Shown here piece after piece: positions 37,873 through 40,199 of a DNA stretch of 64,000 nt. Origin of the DNA: a virus; IMG/VR virus record IMGVR_UViG_3300045988_119573, positions 82,089-146,088 of that record; one strand, given 5' to 3'. The first letter of the stretch is position 1. Each line of letters opens with the position of its first letter. The translations under genes were made by a program, and so were the position numbers. A model generated the notes under the pieces. It saw only the letters and a program-made list of their open reading frames with translations, was not told the origin of the DNA and did no database searches.

Positions 37873-38013
37873 ATCAAATAACATAAATCCGACAATATAA
37901 CATAGATTTTAGTGAGTGCTATAGTAAGCCTCACTTTTGGCGTACTCAATATTATTTGAGCAGAATATTTTATATACTCCCAAAACACACCAAATATTTT
38001 AAAATTTTATTAA
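37873..38013 (-). ncRNA. tracrRNA-like module 1 (anti-repeat + conserved hairpin + CCCAAAACACACC motif)
   Basis: GACAATATAACATAG is complementary to repeat A' (CTATGTTAT...TTGTC); hairpin AGTGAG-N13-CTCACT followed by TTTTGG; motif CCCAAAACACACCAAATATTTTAA. Confidence 0.4.
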
Positions 38014-38183
38014 GTTTATGATGTAAAATTAATTAGGCATCAAACTACATTTTTGCATTTTTTCTTTAATTGCTTCTGCCGTTTTGTACCTATGTAAAAT
38101 TAATTAGGTATCAAACAAAGCATTAGCAGAAGAAAGAGGCTTGCACAGTTTTGTACCTATGTAAAATTAATTAGGTATCAAAC
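38014..38183 (-). CRISPR. Mini-CRISPR array 2: truncated repeat, 35-nt spacer, repeat A, 31-nt spacer, repeat A
   Basis: Two identical 36-nt repeats GTTTTGTACCTATGTAAAATTAATTAGGTATCAAAC (38081..38116, 38148..38183) plus a truncated copy ...ATGTAAAATTAATTAGGCATCAAAC; spacers tacatttttgcattttttctttaattgcttctgcc and aaagcattagcagaagaaagaggcttgcaca. Confidence 0.7.
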
Positions 38184-38318
38184 CTCAAATTCTTTTGTCC
38201 AATTTTGTTACCTAATTTACATAGATTTTAGTGAGTACCTTACGATCTCACTTTTGGCATAGCCACAACTCTGTGACCAGAAATTTTAATTGGAATAAAA
38301 TTTCCCAAAACATGCCAT
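38184..38318 (-). ncRNA. tracrRNA-like module 2
   Basis: TTACCTAATTTACATAG is complementary to repeat A (CTATGTAAA[ATTAA]TTAGGTAA: 16/17 pairing with a 5-nt bulge); hairpin AGTGAG-N11-CTCACT plus TTTTGG; degenerate CCCAAAACA motif. Confidence 0.45.
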
Positions 38319-38420
38319 GTATTTTATTTGTGTAATTTTTTATGGTTCTCAAACACCCATGCACTGGATCAGCGAGCCAAGATCGTTTTGTATTTGTGTA
38401 ATTTTTTATGGTTCTCAAAC
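38319..38420 (-). CRISPR. Mini-CRISPR array 3: repeat B', 30-nt spacer, repeat B
   Basis: GTATTTTATTTGTGTAATTTTTTATGGTTCTCAAAC | acccatgcactggatcagcgagccaagatc | GTTTTGTATTTGTGTAATTTTTTATGGTTCTCAAAC. Confidence 0.65.
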
Positions 38421-38567
38421 CTCAAATCTTAATTATGTATACAATACAAAACTTTACGTTCTGCTTCATTACACAAATTTTAGTGAGTGATTTCTCCTCA
38501 CTTTTGGCGTAACCATTTTATTTATGGCTGAGGGAGTACCGAACTCCCCCCAAAACACACCAAATAT
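38421..38567 (-). ncRNA. tracrRNA-like module 3 (its 3' part overlaps the cas12f stop codon)
   Basis: CATTACACAAAT is complementary to repeat B (ATTTGTGTAAT; 11-13 nt); hairpin AGTGAG-N9-CTCACT plus TTTTGG; extra GGGAG-TACCGAA-CTCCC hairpin; motif CCCCAAAACACACCAAATATTTAA ends at the cas12f TAA. Confidence 0.4.
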
Positions 38568-40199
38568 TTAAGCAGTTTTTTTATTATCATTATTTTTATC
38601 ATCTTCTAATACAATTCCATAATAATCTGCCGCAGCTTGAATCGTTTCTTCTGAACATTTAAATTTATCGTCTGTAAATTGTGTTGACATTGCGATGTTT
38701 CTAGCCGCATTGTAATCTGCATTTACAGTATATAGCTTGTGACTTTTACAATTAGGGTTCTTACATTTAAATGTTGCCTGATCTTTTCTTTGTCCTTTCT
38801 CCCAGTGCCCACAAAAACTACACACTTGAGATGTAAATGATGGATTGATTTTTCTAACTATGATCCCACATTGTTCTGCTTTATATGTAATATATTGCTG
38901 TAGTTTATAAAAGCTCCAATTTCTTAAAACAAATTCACTTGAATCATACCCTTTTAAATTTTCTATGTTGATATATTTTGCTCTATGTTTGATTGCATAA
39001 TCAACAACTTTTTTACTAACTCGATGACAATATGTATCAACAAAATTGTTTTCTTTTTCTTTTAGCCTTTCTAAAGCTAATAATTTTCTTTTTCTTCCAT
39101 GTCCACCTTTTGCTAATTTTAAAGCTTTTTGTAACTGCGTATATTCATTTTGAAATTTTGTTCTTTTTGAAACAAGATCATTCCCACTTCCAATATATTG
39201 TTTATCATATTCGTTATTATTTAAAGCACACACAGCAGGAACAGCAAGTCCCAAGTCAACTCCAACAACAGTATTTTCATCTAAATCCATTTTTTGTTTT
39301 TTCATTGTTATGCTTAAGTTCATTTCTATTTTATTATCATCAATACCAAATGTACTTCCGCCAACTGAATACTCCCCTGTGAAAATCTTAATAATTGTTG
39401 AAATTAATTCTGCCTTATTCTTGTTTTGTTTATGTCCAAAATTAATCTTGAATTTAGCAATTGTTGGAAGACCATTACCGCCCAAGCACACATACACTGG
39501 GTATGTAGACTTACCAATATTCTTTTTTAATTCTGTTATATCTTTGCAATCTGTAAAAATACCAAAACTCTTATTACTTAAAGTAAAAGGAGAATCGAAT
39601 TTGTAATTTGGGACAGAAACTTTTCCTTTCAATACTCCATCTTTAATTAAATTCTTAATTTTGCTTGTAAGCGCTTGTTTAAACTCAAAACCGTATCCCA
39701 TCAACGGATTACTAATATCAACGTCTGTAAAAATACTTCCATTTTTATTACCCGCTTTACGATAACATTTGTTAACATTGGCACTCACCCATTTATTCTT
39801 TTCTGTAAGAGTCGGTAAATTCGCTACTTCGTCCTGTACCATTTTTGTATATATGTATGACATAATGTAATTCTTTCGCCTTGCTTCACTTTCCATCGCA
39901 TCTCTCACAAGACCATATGTATAATCATTAACCATTTTCTGAGTGTATTCTTTCATTCCATTTTCTTTGAACTCTTCATATTGCTTTTCTAATTCTGCAA
40001 GCTGCTGTTTATACCCATCTTTCTTTTCTGGTTTACTTGTGTTCTTAATCTGTTTCTTCTTTGCTTCAATTTTCCTTGGAAAATCTTTTTCTAAGAAAGC
40101 ATCAATTCTTTTCTTCCACTCTTTTCGCTCGCTTGCAACAGGAATTAACGTGATTTTCCTTGCAATTGTCATTGTGTTATCGTCTTGTTTCTTAGCCAT
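38568..40199 (-). CDS. cas12f: Cas12f-like (type V-F / TnpB-family) RuvC nuclease, 543 aa
   Basis: RuvC-I VVGVDLGLAVPAVCALNNNE, RuvC-II YINIENLKG, Zn finger CSFCGHW...FKCKNPNCKSH, RuvC-III NADYNAARNIA. Segments resemble Un1Cas12f1 (GGIDVGVKSPLVCAINN; AGHGAKNKL vs GGHGRKRKL; CSKCGH...FKCEKCNF...NADYNAALNI). Adjacent to the arrays. Confidence 0.75.
   Translation of the reverse strand: MAKKQDDNTMTIARKITLIPVASERKEWKKRIDAFLEKDFPRKIEAKKKQIKNTSKPEKKDGYKQQLAELEKQYEEFKENGMKEYTQKMVNDYTYGLVRDAMESEARRKNYIMSYIYTKMVQDEVANLPTLTEKNKWVSANVNKCYRKAGNKNGSIFTDVDISNPLMGYGFEFKQALTSKIKNLIKDGVLKGKVSVPNYKFDSPFTLSNKSFGIFTDCKDITELKKNIGKSTYPVYVCLGGNGLPTIAKFKINFGHKQNKNKAELISTIIKIFTGEYSVGGSTFGIDDNKIEMNLSITMKKQKMDLDENTVVGVDLGLAVPAVCALNNNEYDKQYIGSGNDLVSKRTKFQNEYTQLQKALKLAKGGHGRKRKLLALERLKEKENNFVDTYCHRVSKKVVDYAIKHRAKYINIENLKGYDSSEFVLRNWSFYKLQQYITYKAEQCGIIVRKINPSFTSQVCSFCGHWEKGQRKDQATFKCKNPNCKSHKLYTVNADYNAARNIAMSTQFTDDKFKCSEETIQAAADYYGIVLEDDKNNDNKKTA

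Follow-up and report, generated by a model that had tools for sequence, protein, structure and literature searches.

The cas12f gene and its three downstream modules

The window, a 64,000-nt stretch of viral DNA, carries a cas12f gene and, downstream of it, three modules (C, B and A) that lie on the minus strand throughout (Table 1). Each module begins with the P1 5' strand GGYRU, the pseudoknot strand (PK) GUUUUG, the hairpins H1 and H2, the P1 3' strand AYGCC and AAAA, and continues with H3 (GUGAG, a variable extension and loop, a bulged A, CUCAC), UAAAAU, an anti-repeat, a linker, ATTTGAG and an array. The arrays run from a 36-nt repeat and a spacer of ~30 nt to a degenerate repeat. The mini-arrays, degenerate distal repeats and anti-repeats of a preliminary description of this DNA were all recovered, and the array of module A stops just short of the next minus-strand ORF start (37754).

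Table 1. Features of the cas12f locus, with positions in the window
Feature	Position	Strand	Basis
cas12f, 543 aa, V-F1/V-U3 group effector	38568-40199	minus	profile, structure and residue evidence
Module C 21-mer: AAAUAUUU, then P1 5' GGUGU 38557-38561, then PK GUUUUG 38551-38556	38549-38569	minus	
Module C variable hairpins, enclosed by P1: H1 38530-38550, H2 38512-38528	38512-38550	minus	MFE fold, H2 covariation
Module C P1 3' strand ACGCC (plus strand: GGCGT inside TTTTGGCGTA)	38506-38510	minus	covariation
Module C H3: AGUGAG, GA-GAAA-UC, bulged A, CUCACU (the hairpin of the preliminary description)	38482-38502	minus	covariation
Module C anti-repeat AUUUGUGUAAU, pairing with AUUACACAAAU of the repeat	38468-38478	minus	fold, covariation, duplex energy
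Module C leader end ATTTGAG, abutting the first repeat 5'	38421-38427	minus	junction consensus
Module C mini-array: repeat 38385-38420, spacer 38355-38384, degenerate repeat 38319-38354	38319-38420	minus	
Module B diverged 21-mer: P1 5' GGCAU 38312-38316, PK GUUUUG 38306-38311	38304-38324	minus	
Module B H1 38279-38305, H2 38261-38278, P1 3' AUGCC 38256-38260 and H3 (next row)	38230-38305	minus	
Module B H3, GUAA loop and U·G pair	38230-38252	minus	
Module B anti-repeat (pairs with both repeat halves), linker, leader end ATTTGAG 38184-38190	38184-38226	minus	
Module B mini-array: repeats 38148-38183 and 38081-38116, degenerate repeat 38010-38045	38010-38183	minus	
Module B spacers: B1 38117-38147, B2 38046-38080		minus	
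Module A 21-mer: P1 5' GGUGU 37987-37991, PK GUUUUG 37981-37986	37979-37999	minus	
Module A H1; H2 CUCAA/UUGAG 37945-37960; P1 3' ACGCC 37939-37943; H3 37911-37935	37911-37978	minus	
Module A anti-repeat CUAUGUUAU…UUGUC, linker, leader end ATTTGAT	37873-37905	minus	
Module A mini-array: repeat 37837-37872, spacer 37807-37836, degenerate repeat 37771-37806	37771-37872	minus	

The preliminary description singled out a hairpin (AGTGAG-N9-13-CTCACT followed by TTTTGG) in three copies and a 21-mer in two. The hairpin count holds: AGTGAG-N(9-13)-CTCACTTTTGG occurs on the plus strand at 37911-37940, 38230-38257 and 38482-38507 only in the 64 kb, with TTTTGGCRTA directly after each copy, and 100 dinucleotide shuffles gave 0 matches (expected by chance, 0). 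The two copies of the 21-mer CCCAAAACACACCAAATATTT are exact, at 37979-37999 and 38549-38569, but a third, diverged and compensatorily mutated copy, CCCAAAACATGCCATGTATTT, lies at 38304-38324 in module B, so that there is one copy per module and not two in all. In plus-strand terms, the P1 3' strand together with the AAAA linker is seen as its complement TTTTGGCRTA, the pseudoknot strand as CCCAAAAC, and the P1 5' strand as the CACAC that comes after CCCAAAAC (in module B, CATGC). The 21-mer was also said to overlap the last codons and stop of cas12f; it covers 2 nt of the TAA codon (38568-38570) and leaves the last sense codons untouched, and P1 of module C begins 7 nt past the stop codon.

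We take a V-F1/V-U3 effector to be a RuvC nuclease of 400-700 aa with an intact D-E-D triad, a TNB zinc finger and matches to Cas12f profiles, and the 543-aa protein has all of these features. Its best PADLOC profiles are Cas12u3 (E 3.8e-94), past which its N-terminus extends, and Cas12f (E 4.5e-91). It matches Cas12f1-like_TNB (PF07282) and OrfB_IS605 in Pfam and scores 151 bits with NCBIfam guided_TnpB; the 108 bits obtained with the NCBIfam Cas12f2 'exception' model fall below the cut-off of 450, and that model covers another subtype. The nearest solved structures are those of CnCas12f1 (8hr5) and Al3Cas12f (9nzo/9nzr), with E ~1e-58. The RuvC triad D315/E413/D495 and the CxxC…C cysteines of the zinc finger are invariant in 23 homologs, and the phage Cas12f, with its triad intact, is apparently active.

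Covarying helices and the strand of the scaffold

We counted covariation on an alignment (A2) of 30 close modules, and all helices of the scaffold covary. Of the 989 helix cells 99.5% are paired, compared to 91.2% in shuffles and 28-50% with slid partners; in 12 pairs both partners change in a compensatory manner, and covariation scores 0.329 versus 0.155, although the shuffle statistics overstate independence because the sequences are related. P1 (alignment columns 7-11 with 71-75) is fully paired (100%), and its compensatory changes are A-U/G-C and C-G/U·G. Covariation is present at four of the five pairs of H2, and in H3 the first pair past the bulged A covaries (GC in 16 modules, AU in 14). 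The six H3 core pairs are invariant in the 30 modules, and this set is therefore uninformative on their pairing; the core varies only in more distant relatives, as UCGAG/CUUGA, UUGAG/CUCAA and GUGAG/CUCAU.

The anti-repeat forms with the repeat the helix expected of a tracrRNA, with 10 pairs, 99.3% paired and three changed on both sides. The calculated duplex with the cognate repeat has an energy of -20.5 kcal/mol in module B and -16.3 kcal/mol in module A; the anti-repeat region of module C and the repeat of module B are not clearly orthogonal, with -11.8 versus -12.3 kcal/mol. [quoted passage not shown] In 53 of 61 unique modules the exact complement of the module's own PK 5-mer stands at its own repeat tail, compared to 24.8 on average and at most 34 in 2000 shuffles, and PK and tail fall into six covarying classes (UUUUG/CAAAA, UUUCG/CGAAA, UUCUG/CAGAA, UUUGG/CCAAA, CUUUG/CAAAG and UUUUA/UAAAA). 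P1 and PK thus covary as a stem 1 plus pseudoknot core in which the pseudoknot involves the guide-adjacent nucleotides of the repeat.

Conservation by descent would be another explanation of the hairpin and the 21-mer, the modules being recent tandem duplicates that keep both without function. The H3 core and the PK strand are indeed identical in the three modules of the window. H1, H2, the middle of the repeat and the anti-repeat, however, differ strongly between modules, and do so compensatorily, and the architecture persists with different sequences in relatives whose proteins are only 37-54% identical. We find it hardly credible that the motifs are mere duplication scars.

Only the minus strand agrees with the G·U pairs and with the folding energies. 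The helices of the 30 modules contain 66 G·U cells, which on the plus strand become A·C mismatches. Segments that played no part in finding the modules were used for the energy test: for H1+H2 segments the gene-sense strand gives -12.7 kcal/mol and the opposite strand -8.9, the former being lower in 30 of 33, with 65 versus 8 G·U pairs in the folds, and the H3 extension folds lower on the gene-sense strand in 25 of 26 informative cases. Whole-module folds give -53.7 (z -5.8) on the minus strand versus -37.7 on the plus strand, and -49.3 versus -41.0. A strict module finder is positive at 53 of 80 loci in the gene sense and at 0 of 80 on the opposite strand. Both cas12f and every kept window ORF of at least 70 codons are on the minus strand.

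The preliminary description had weighed both strands, proposing either a plus-strand intrinsic terminator or, on the minus strand, a tracr-like RNA immediately before each array. On the plus strand the arrays would be read from left to right, the anti-repeat would open a type II-like tracrRNA, and the hairpin with TTTTGG would terminate it. Four T do follow the hairpin there, the anti-repeat precedes it as in Cas9 tracrRNAs, and the plus-strand folds beat their shuffles (z -3.2 and -5.05), but the complement of any structured RNA does so too. A rho-independent terminator, defined as a G+C-rich stem followed by a U-run of at least 5, does not fit a tail in which TTTT is followed by GG and which is the complement of the covarying stem P1. 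Prediction between 37500 and 38900 yields no terminator-like site on either strand. Moreover, the effector is a Cas12f, with a crRNA of repeat then spacer, and not a Cas9, and the degenerate repeats would sit leader-proximal. Taken with the G·U counts, the energies and the ORF orientation, this makes the plus-strand terminator extremely unlikely; the covariation and the resemblance to established Cas12f guide RNAs support the minus-strand alternative.

The hairpin and the 21-mer are therefore, with high probability, the conserved parts of three paralogous minus-strand scaffolds of the Cas12f tracrRNA type, one before each mini-array. The three scaffolds would serve one phage Cas12f; as a kind of guide RNA they are known, and what is unusual is their tandem layout. 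Counting against this reading, a σ70 scan of the minus strand between 37500 and 38900 gives no promoter-like site, and no terminator is predicted between the modules. A transcribed and processed scaffold would pair through its anti-repeat with the repeat, perhaps with the first one and in cis, and the last six nucleotides of the repeat (CAAAAC), just 5' of the guide, would pair with GUUUUG in the P1 loop to give the stem-1/pseudoknot core common to Cas12f1 and TnpB guide RNAs. The 543-aa Cas12f would assemble with this scaffold and cut spacer-complementary DNA, presumably that of rival mobile elements. Effectors of the V-F1/V-U3 type act as an asymmetric homodimer on a single guide RNA and cleave dsDNA under RNA guidance.

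Arrays, targets and related phage loci

The leader-repeat junction has the consensus ATTTGAG|GTTT, with exactly ATTTGAG in 28 of 65 unique junctions, and 111 of 144 spacers are 30 nt long. Spacer B1 has perfect 31/31 protospacers in four metagenome contigs (L106-L109), in a SprT-like gene of a plasmid-like element with ParA, a replication initiator and a resolvase, and a pair of spacers in the family matches a recombinase gene on another viral contig. The 5' flanks of the protospacers, TTCGA, TTCCA and TACCA, read C(C/G)A in three of three, the three sites including two that overlap as reverse complements; their 3' flanks are unrelated.

Of 80 related phage loci, at least 38 have tandem tracr-array cassettes (two or more), and the number of cassettes per locus varies from one to four. 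In 14 related phage loci the genes on either side are in synteny, with 95-100% identity, and the spacers of the adjacent arrays (three mini-arrays here) differ between phages whose Cas12f proteins are 91-94% identical. A hypervariable cassette site between near-identical phage genes points to rapid turnover of cassettes in conflicts between mobile elements.

In 185,579 species-representative genomes a degenerate repeat pattern gave only chance matches and one phage-like fragment (L091). This bears on the idea that the II-A-like repeats are phage RNA anti-CRISPRs directed against a host Cas9 rather than Cas12f guides. The repeat format and the leader end are the type II-A Group 1 signature (PMC5382924), and viral mini-arrays and repeat decoys are known (PMC11656645). 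However, no array with these repeats is present in those genomes, each repeat covaries with its adjacent Cas12f-type tracr, and the spacers have real protospacers, so that a decoy function is most improbable. Like other virus-borne mini-arrays, those of the phage have one or two spacers, lie in a viral genome without an adaptation module and target mobile elements (PMC11656645). Classical viral mini-arrays carry copies of host repeats and rely on a borrowed host effector (PMC11656645 and references therein), whereas the phage encodes an effector itself, as well as one dedicated tracr per array, with repeats found in no host genome of the set searched.

Relation to known RNA-guided systems

The closest known systems are the type V-F1 (formerly V-U3) Cas12f1 tracrRNA:crRNA pairs, especially those of Cas12f-MG119/Al3Cas12f (9NZO, 9NZR) and CnCas12f1 (8HR5). 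The effectors belong to the same family (E ~1e-58 to the solved chains). In each case the loop or 3' flank of a short G-C-rich stem pairs with the final 5-6 nt of the repeat, and a stem ending …A-CUCA(C/A), AAAAU and the anti-repeat come next. Among guides that have been used experimentally for close relatives, that of MG119-3 is built as GGUGU-GUUGGA-ACGCC-UUAG-UUUGAGG…ACUCAAAAAAU-anti-repeat with the crRNA tail UCCAAC, and those of Al3Cas12f and MG119-2 have the same build (PMC13186708 supplement 3). In the CnCas12f1 locus the tracr immediately follows the gene, the PK being AUUUA and the repeat tail UAAAU; the phage tracr likewise sits between gene and array, directly after the former, and neither locus has adaptation genes alongside. 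The differences are that the phage-borne locus has one to four cassettes of tracr plus mini-array instead of one tracr and one array, and has 36-nt repeats, 30-nt spacers and the leader end ATTTGAG, compared to 29-nt repeats and 36-41-nt spacers for CnCas12f1. The C(C/G)A flank, from three sites of which two overlap, looks more like the C-rich PAM in the title of the CnCas12f1 paper than like the T-rich PAM of MG119. Cas12p ('Cas12 hacker', bioRxiv 10.1101/2025.01.20.633832; PDB 9JFS) is also a small, phage-encoded and tracrRNA-dependent Cas12, but of a different family and only distantly related (E 3e-5).

TnpB offers a further comparison. The gene could be an IS200/605 TnpB and module C its ωRNA, overlapping the 3' end of the gene as the preliminary description proposed, with LE/RE-type ends. 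The protein matches TnpB-family profiles and is a RuvC/TNB nuclease of the same superfamily, the first scaffold begins at the stop codon of the nuclease gene, and the stem-1 and pseudoknot core, which adjoins the 3' guide, is common to Cas12f1 and TnpB guide RNAs, the P1/PK core of the phage modules being shared with TnpB reRNA (PMC12255294). However, the best profiles are Cas12u3 and Cas12f, and the overlap of 2 nt within the stop codon, with P1 beyond it, is no real ORF overlap of the ωRNA kind. The guides are CRISPR spacers bounded by repeats and not flank-derived, they differ between closely related phages, and the RNA is split, at least formally, into anti-repeat and repeat. Nor is there an IS200/605 organisation: the locus has a single copy in the window and a fixed syntenic place between the near-identical phage genes, transposon ends are lacking, and no transposase is found in the neighbours or in 30 scanned ORFs. 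We consider a TnpB-ωRNA element very improbable here and retain the assignment to Cas12f with CRISPR-type guides.

Two features of the phage system are unusual, the tandem tracr-array cassettes and a II-A-like array format without adaptation genes in the window. Spacers of type II-A systems are 30 nt long. The arrays have the type II-A Group 1 format, with 36-nt repeats that start with GTTT (G1) and end with AAAC (C36) and an ATTTGAG abutting the repeat, as in the leader end of S. thermophilus CRISPR1 (PMC5382924), and with 30-nt spacers. Unlike in II-A Group 1, the window has no cas9, cas1, cas2 or csn2: its 84 minus-strand ORFs give no match to Cas1, Cas2, Cas4 or Cas9 profiles. The tracr is of the Cas12f type and not the Cas9 type, the crRNA is repeat then spacer, and the three protospacers have no common 3' flank. 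Cas12f1 relatives with 29-nt repeats have the leader ends ATTTAGG or ATTTGGG, and the motif may therefore be inherited within the Cas12f1 clade.

A bolder and, on balance, unlikely interpretation is that the II-A-format junctions are integration sites for a host type II-A Cas1-Cas2(-Csn2) acting in trans, with the cassettes as autonomous, exchangeable 'guide genes'. If true, the adaptation module of another CRISPR type would supply the spacers of a phage type V effector and its co-evolved tracrRNAs, and each tracr-array cassette would be a precursor of a natural single guide. CnCas12f1 would be a parallel case, since its 29-nt repeats look type I-B-like in format and it too lacks adaptation genes nearby. 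The II-A-like leader-repeat signature in any case turns the spacer source of effector-only phage CRISPR systems into a testable question.

With the strand and the RNA anatomy settled, a single-guide design is at hand, consisting of P1-PK-H3-anti-repeat, a loop, the last ~18 nt of the repeat and the spacer. Such guides would suit a compact Cas12f of 543 aa with one or more identifiable targets in nature. The variation over more than 60 modules is in addition a natural mutational map of the dispensable parts of the scaffold: P1, PK and H3 are constrained, and H1 and H2 are missing from 'minimal' tracrs of ~60 nt.

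Conserved hairpins and module anatomy

The hairpin of the preliminary description, AGTGAG-N7-16-CTCACTTTTGG, has three copies in the 64-kb window, all of them on the plus strand and one in each of modules A, B and C, the tracr-plus-mini-array units beside the phage cas12f. The pattern had no match in 100 dinucleotide-preserving shuffles. Its loops are 13, 11 and 9 nt long, and TTTTGGCRTA follows each copy. The 21-mer CCCAAAACACACCAAATATTT, previously counted twice, indeed has two exact copies, but the repeat finder adds a third, diverged one, CCCAAAACATGCCATGTATTT, so that the motif is present once per module. 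The sole ORF adjoining the hairpin region encodes a 543-aa protein. The neighboring 21-mer shares just 2 nt with the TAA stop codon of this ORF and touches no sense codons. The motif therefore does not cover the last cas12f codons, and the suggestion that a module overlaps the 3′ end of the gene in the manner of an ωRNA was wrong.

Positions of features in the window
Feature	Position	Strand	Remark
Hairpin copy, module A	37911-37940	+	pattern search
Hairpin copy, module B	38230-38257	+	pattern search
Hairpin copy, module C	38482-38507	+	pattern search
21-mer, exact copy	37979-37999		
21-mer, exact copy	38549-38569		
21-mer, diverged copy	38304		repeat finder, family D3
Spacer B1	38117-38147		
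ORF of 543 aa (cas12f)	38568..40199	-	
Flank compared with related phages	36678-37754		
Flank compared with related phages	40202-40983		
nrdD, two ORFs	2430-5288		
nrdD part 1	4416-5288		ATP-cone and N-terminal part
nrdD part 2	2430-3413		C-terminal part with glycyl-radical domain
ORF of 124 aa	3650-4024		between the nrdD parts
RecD-like helicase	12798-15050		
DNA polymerase III alpha gene	15599-18763		
LAGLIDADG endonuclease ORF	18753-20018		sigma-70 region 4-like HTH

A common plan on the minus strand, the strand of cas12f, was obtained from the reverse complement of the region and from A2, an alignment of 30 distinct modules of the window and its relatives. Six variable nucleotides precede GGYRU, the 5′ strand of stem P1, and GUUYYG, the strand denoted PK. 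Two variable hairpins follow, H1 (of varying length) and H2, and then UAYGCC, which contains the 3′ strand of P1 (AYGCC), and AAAA. The conserved hairpin, H3, consists of GUGAG, a variable extension that often has a GNRA-type loop, one bulged A, and CUCAC. Next come UAAAAU, the anti-repeat, a linker and ATTTGAG; the end of H3 and the start of the repeat are 17-102 nt apart. The array itself opens with the 36-nt repeat G…ACAAAAC and a spacer, continues with more repeat-spacer units and closes with a degenerate repeat. The plus-strand TTTTGGCRTA is the complement of the P1 3′ strand and the AAAA linker, CCCAAAAC on the plus strand that of the PK strand, and the CACAC that follows it (CATGC in module B) that of the P1 5′ strand. 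Many relatives carry a minimal tracr of ~60 nt that lacks H1 and H2, the PK strand forming the loop of P1. A MAFFT alignment that included these minimal modules (A3) parted their P1 and PK from those of the extended ones; anchored extraction and pair counting on A2 were used instead. In Rfam the stretch 37000-39200 had no significant match; among the relevant ones CRISPR-DR22 on the minus strand came closest (16.9 bits, E 3.2).

Two to four modules, always oriented like the gene but on either side of it, are present in at least 38 of the 80 IMG/VR loci that make up the family sample, as compared to three in the window. Modules are alike in P1, PK and H3 and unlike in the repeat middle and the anti-repeat, which compensate mutually. 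The cognate anti-repeat:repeat duplex is the most stable one for B (-20.5 kcal/mol) and A (-16.3 kcal/mol); module C is ambiguous, with -11.8 kcal/mol for the cognate duplex and -12.3 kcal/mol with the B repeat. In some relatives partial arrangements occur 3′ of cas12f: the tracr there has just one repeat behind it, without a second one (L056:4165-4330), or none (L045:4160-4260). On a 1.7-kb contig from an Oscillospiraceae MAG bin, a tracr and array have no cas12f immediately upstream (L091:990-1260).

Base pairing, pseudoknot and strand

The helices tested on A2 were P1, H2, the H3 core with one extension pair, the repeat:anti-repeat duplex and the pseudoknot. Standard pairs fill 99.5% of 989 cells, compared to 91.2% after shuffling and 28-50% when the partners are slid by 1-3 columns. 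Twelve pairs are changed on both sides (shuffled mean 7.9), and the covariation score is 0.329 (shuffled 0.155); none of 500 shuffles matched the observed values on any of these three measures. P1 occurs as GGCAU/AUGCC, GGUGU/ACGCC and GGCAC/GUGCC, and H2 has two-sided changes at four of its five pairs. The H3 core, six pairs long, does not vary across the 30 modules and is thus uninformative alone on pairing, but just past the bulged A 16 modules have a G-C pair and 14 an A-U pair, and the core itself varies compatibly in more distant relatives (UCGAG/CUUGA, UUGAG/CUCAA, GUGAG/CUCAU).

For the pseudoknot, the PK strand was compared with the repeat tail of the same module in 61 unique family modules. 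The tail holds the exact Watson-Crick complement of its own PK 5-mer in 53 of them, against 24.8 on average and at most 34 when tails were shuffled among modules (2000 trials). Where the PK strand is other than UUUUG (23 modules), 17 have their own complement and only one has CAAAA. The classes are UUUUG/CAAAA, UUUCG/CGAAA, UUCUG/CAGAA (or CGGAA with a G·U pair), UUUGG/CCAAA, CUUUG/CAAAG and UUUUA/UAAAA. Unconstrained minimum free energy folds of modules C and B recover P1, H1, H2, H3 with its bulged A and the cis repeat:anti-repeat duplex. In the same folds GUUUUG lies unpaired within the P1 multiloop and the final seven nucleotides of the repeat are likewise single-stranded, so that the two are free to pair mutually.

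The hairpin had been read either as a plus-strand intrinsic terminator or as part of a minus-strand tracr-like RNA. The tested helices hold 66 G·U cells and only 5 non-pairs, with U·G, for example, at P1 position 3 in 14 of 30 modules and at the first repeat:anti-repeat pair in 21 of 30, and each G·U turns into an A·C mismatch when read on the plus strand. Two-strand folding was confined to segments that had no part in locating the modules. The energy of H1 and H2 is -12.7 kcal/mol on the gene-sense strand and -8.9 kcal/mol on the opposite strand, lower for gene-sense in 30 of 33 cases (Wilcoxon p 1.8e-6; G·U pairs 65 versus 8). For the H3 extension the values are -1.09 and -0.59 kcal/mol, with gene-sense lower in 25 cases, the opposite strand in 1 and 35 ties (p 1.2e-5; G·U pairs 12 versus 2). 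Whole modules also fold better on the minus strand, at -53.7 (z -5.8) versus -37.7 kcal/mol (z -3.2) for C and -49.3 (z -5.8) versus -41.0 kcal/mol (z -5.05) for B, and a strict module finder, run on the 80 family loci, detected modules in 53 of them when reading the gene-sense strand and in no locus when reading the opposite one. Promoter and terminator prediction, proposed in the preliminary description as a check, gave no terminator-like site on either strand between 37500 and 38900 and no σ70 site on the minus strand. Because of the G·U cells, the folds, the module finder and the empty terminator scan, the plus-strand terminator is rejected; the hairpin itself is confirmed, and the minus-strand half of its interpretation is right.

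The scan also found no terminator separating the modules from one another or from the next ORF, at 37754. Since minus-strand promoter sites and intervening terminators both failed to appear, the modules may be processed from a long read-through transcript that begins upstream of cas12f or with it, or may each be driven by a weak promoter of their own. The first repeat-spacer may stay covalently linked to its tracr as a natural single guide, or the tracr and crRNA may be separate molecules. The sequence T(A/T)AAAT, 4 nt before P1, was considered as a σ70 -10 box for the modules and rejected: it is conserved among the window modules only, relatives have a small hairpin there, and the promoter scan is empty. 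This extra hairpin just 5′ of P1 covaries in many family modules (TACAU/AUGUA, GCACAA/UUGUGC, CAUAC/GUAUG; examples at L014:5140-5166, L018:4975-4998 and L020:4705-4725), and window modules have the AAAUAUUU or AAAUACAU part of the 21-mer at that position. The element could serve as a 5′ stem or a -10-like box, or it could mark a processing site.

Known Cas12f scaffolds, array format and spacers

The tracrRNA and crRNA parts of experimentally working sgRNAs are given in the supplement of PMC13186708. That of Cas12f-MG119-3 reads …GGUGU-GUUGGA-ACGCC-UUAG-UUUGAGG…(insertion)…AC-ACUCAAA-AAAU-UCAUUUA, joined to UAAAUGA-AUAUCCAAC. A 5-bp stem encloses a loop (GUUGGA) complementary to the crRNA tail (UCCAAC), and the next stem has a bulged A before the CUCAAA at its end, followed by AAAAU and the anti-repeat. 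Al3Cas12f (9NZO; GGCGC-GUUGGA-GCGCC) and MG119-2 (GGGCA-AUUUUA-UGUCC, tail UAAAAC) in the same source follow this plan. It is also found right after the stop codon in the genomic locus of CnCas12f1 (L103; GGGCG-AUUUAA-CGUCC, repeat tail GUAAAU), and likewise directly 3′ of the stop codon in the Clostridium senegalense Cas12f1 locus. Because the plan is common to MG119-3, Al3Cas12f, MG119-2 and CnCas12f1, the window elements belong to the known Cas12f1-type tracrRNA scaffold. According to PMC12255294, Cas12f1 sgRNAs and TnpB reRNA share a conserved core made up of stem 1, the pseudoknot, stem 2 and the 3′ guide, and stem 5 is the repeat:anti-repeat duplex. P1 is the counterpart of stem 1, GUUUUG paired with CAAAAC that of the pseudoknot, and H3 that of the stem before the anti-repeat. 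The scaffold is thus of a known kind, here in a phage-borne, tandemly repeated and II-A-formatted variant.

The phage arrays match the type II-A Group 1 format defined in PMC5382924 in their repeat ends and leader end. The repeat is 36 nt long, with G1 and C36, 5′ GTTT and 3′ AAAC; 111 of 144 spacers have a length of 30 nt; and the leader end ATTTGAG is exact in 28 of 65 unique junctions (consensus ATTTGAG|GTTT(T/G)AGA), though it lies at varying distances (17-102 nt) from the tracr. PMC6895254 describes how the junction of leader and repeat functions in integration by Cas1-Cas2. CnCas12f1 arrays differ, with 29-nt repeats and 36-41-nt spacers. The 29-nt repeats are GTTTTAGTTTAACTATGTGAAATGTAAAT and GTATCTAAGTTACTTAGTGAAATGTGAAT (L103:7494-8640 for CnCas12f1, L105:7494-8170 for C. 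senegalense, where spacers are 35-37 nt), a format that we take to resemble clostridial type I-B. Neither Clostridium locus has adaptation genes within 6 kb, and the 84 minus-strand window ORFs gave no match to Cas1, Cas2, Cas4 or Cas9 profiles. The two array formats and the lack of nearby adaptation genes suggest that Cas12f1 cassettes consisting of an effector alone make use of any adaptation machinery at hand. Several points speak against specific mimicry of II-A arrays, a reading that we consider improbable. Leader ends in the Clostridium relatives also read ATTTAGG and ATTTGGG, and the motif may therefore be inherited within the clade. The protospacers lack the common 3′ flank that would be expected from Cas9-assisted acquisition. 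A repeat search of 185,579 species-representative genomes revealed no host array of this kind, giving only chance matches and one phage-like fragment in an Oscillospiraceae MAG bin.

Spacers differ even among phages with 91-94% identical Cas12f. Four metagenome contigs (L106-L109) match spacer B1 perfectly, at 31/31 positions. The protospacer lies within a SprT-like gene, and the element carrying it, which is plasmid-like or phage-plasmid-like, has further genes for ParA, a replication initiator, a PBECR nuclease domain, an HNH endonuclease and a resolvase. Two more contigs (L106-L111 set) hold a 28/31 variant flanked by TTCAA versus TTCGA, possibly an escape variant or a plain diverged homolog. 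Spacers of two related phages (L050:2580-2609 and L045:2625-2654) are mutual reverse complements with a 4-nt offset, and both match a single site in a 192-aa tyrosine-recombinase gene on an unrelated viral contig (L099:1493-1526), which suggests independent acquisitions from one hot spot, each with a 5′ CCA flank. In the crRNA sense the 5′ flanks are TTCGA, TTCCA and TACCA. The shared C(C/G)A (n=3, two sites not independent) is only a lead, compatible with a C-rich 5′ PAM; the title of a CnCas12f1 paper cited in PMC13186708 names a C-rich PAM. The side of the PAM was dropped as an independent test of strand, as the flank fits both a 5′ PAM of a gene-sense crRNA and a 3′ PAM of an antisense, type II-like crRNA. 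No target was found for the window spacers other than B1: the four window spacers and ~125 family spacers have no match in deposited phages, C1, B1 and A1 no non-self match in IMG/VR, and C1 no match in JGI metagenomes. Two further family spacers gave self matches only, and the window itself is matched by no spacer.

The effector and its phage context

The 543-aa protein has Cas12f1-like TNB and OrfB_IS605 domains and scores 151 bits against NCBIfam guided_TnpB. PADLOC gives Cas12u3 (E 3.8e-94, profile nearly fully covered) and Cas12f (E 4.5e-91). The best solved structures are CnCas12f1 (8hr5, E 8e-59), Al3Cas12f (9nzo/9nzr), RhCas12f, OsCas12f and AsCas12f, named as in PMC13186708 and PMC12255294; the phage Cas12p or "Cas12 hacker" (9jfs) is remote, with E only 3e-5, and is ruled out as its identity. 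An alignment with 22 homologs (46-70% identity) shows no change at the RuvC residues D315, E413 and D495 or at the zinc-finger cysteines. On the basis of these matches and residues, the effector is a Cas12f of the V-F1 (formerly V-U3) group and is presumably active.

The family comprises at least 742 relatives, many on 140-230-kb contigs; a megablast search of the region against 50,697 deposited phage records gave no match. All kept window ORFs of at least 70 codons lie on the minus strand, and the annotated products include DNA polymerase III alpha, a RecD-like helicase, NAD-dependent ligase, DnaB, anaerobic ribonucleotide reductase and a phage integrase. Small phage ORFs flank cas12f. In the 14 related phage loci that matched, flanking proteins are 95-100% identical and Cas12f only 62-94%; the cas12f-array locus is a hypervariable cassette at a fixed site, not a mobile insertion sequence. 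Its variability reflects either cassette swapping or fast divergence. The two flanks in the table were compared with L008-L042.

Elsewhere in the window, nrdD (anaerobic ribonucleotide reductase) is split into two ORFs ~1 kb apart, which could be due to an intron, an intein or a homing-endonuclease insertion. The LAGLIDADG endonuclease ORF lies between the genes for DNA polymerase III alpha and for a DHH phosphoesterase. Among other window ORFs PADLOC reports typeIV_RecD and RecD_like (E down to 2.3e-71), PDC-S68, PDC-M16A, PDC-S53, Nhi and AbiO; the first two presumably correspond to the RecD-like helicase.
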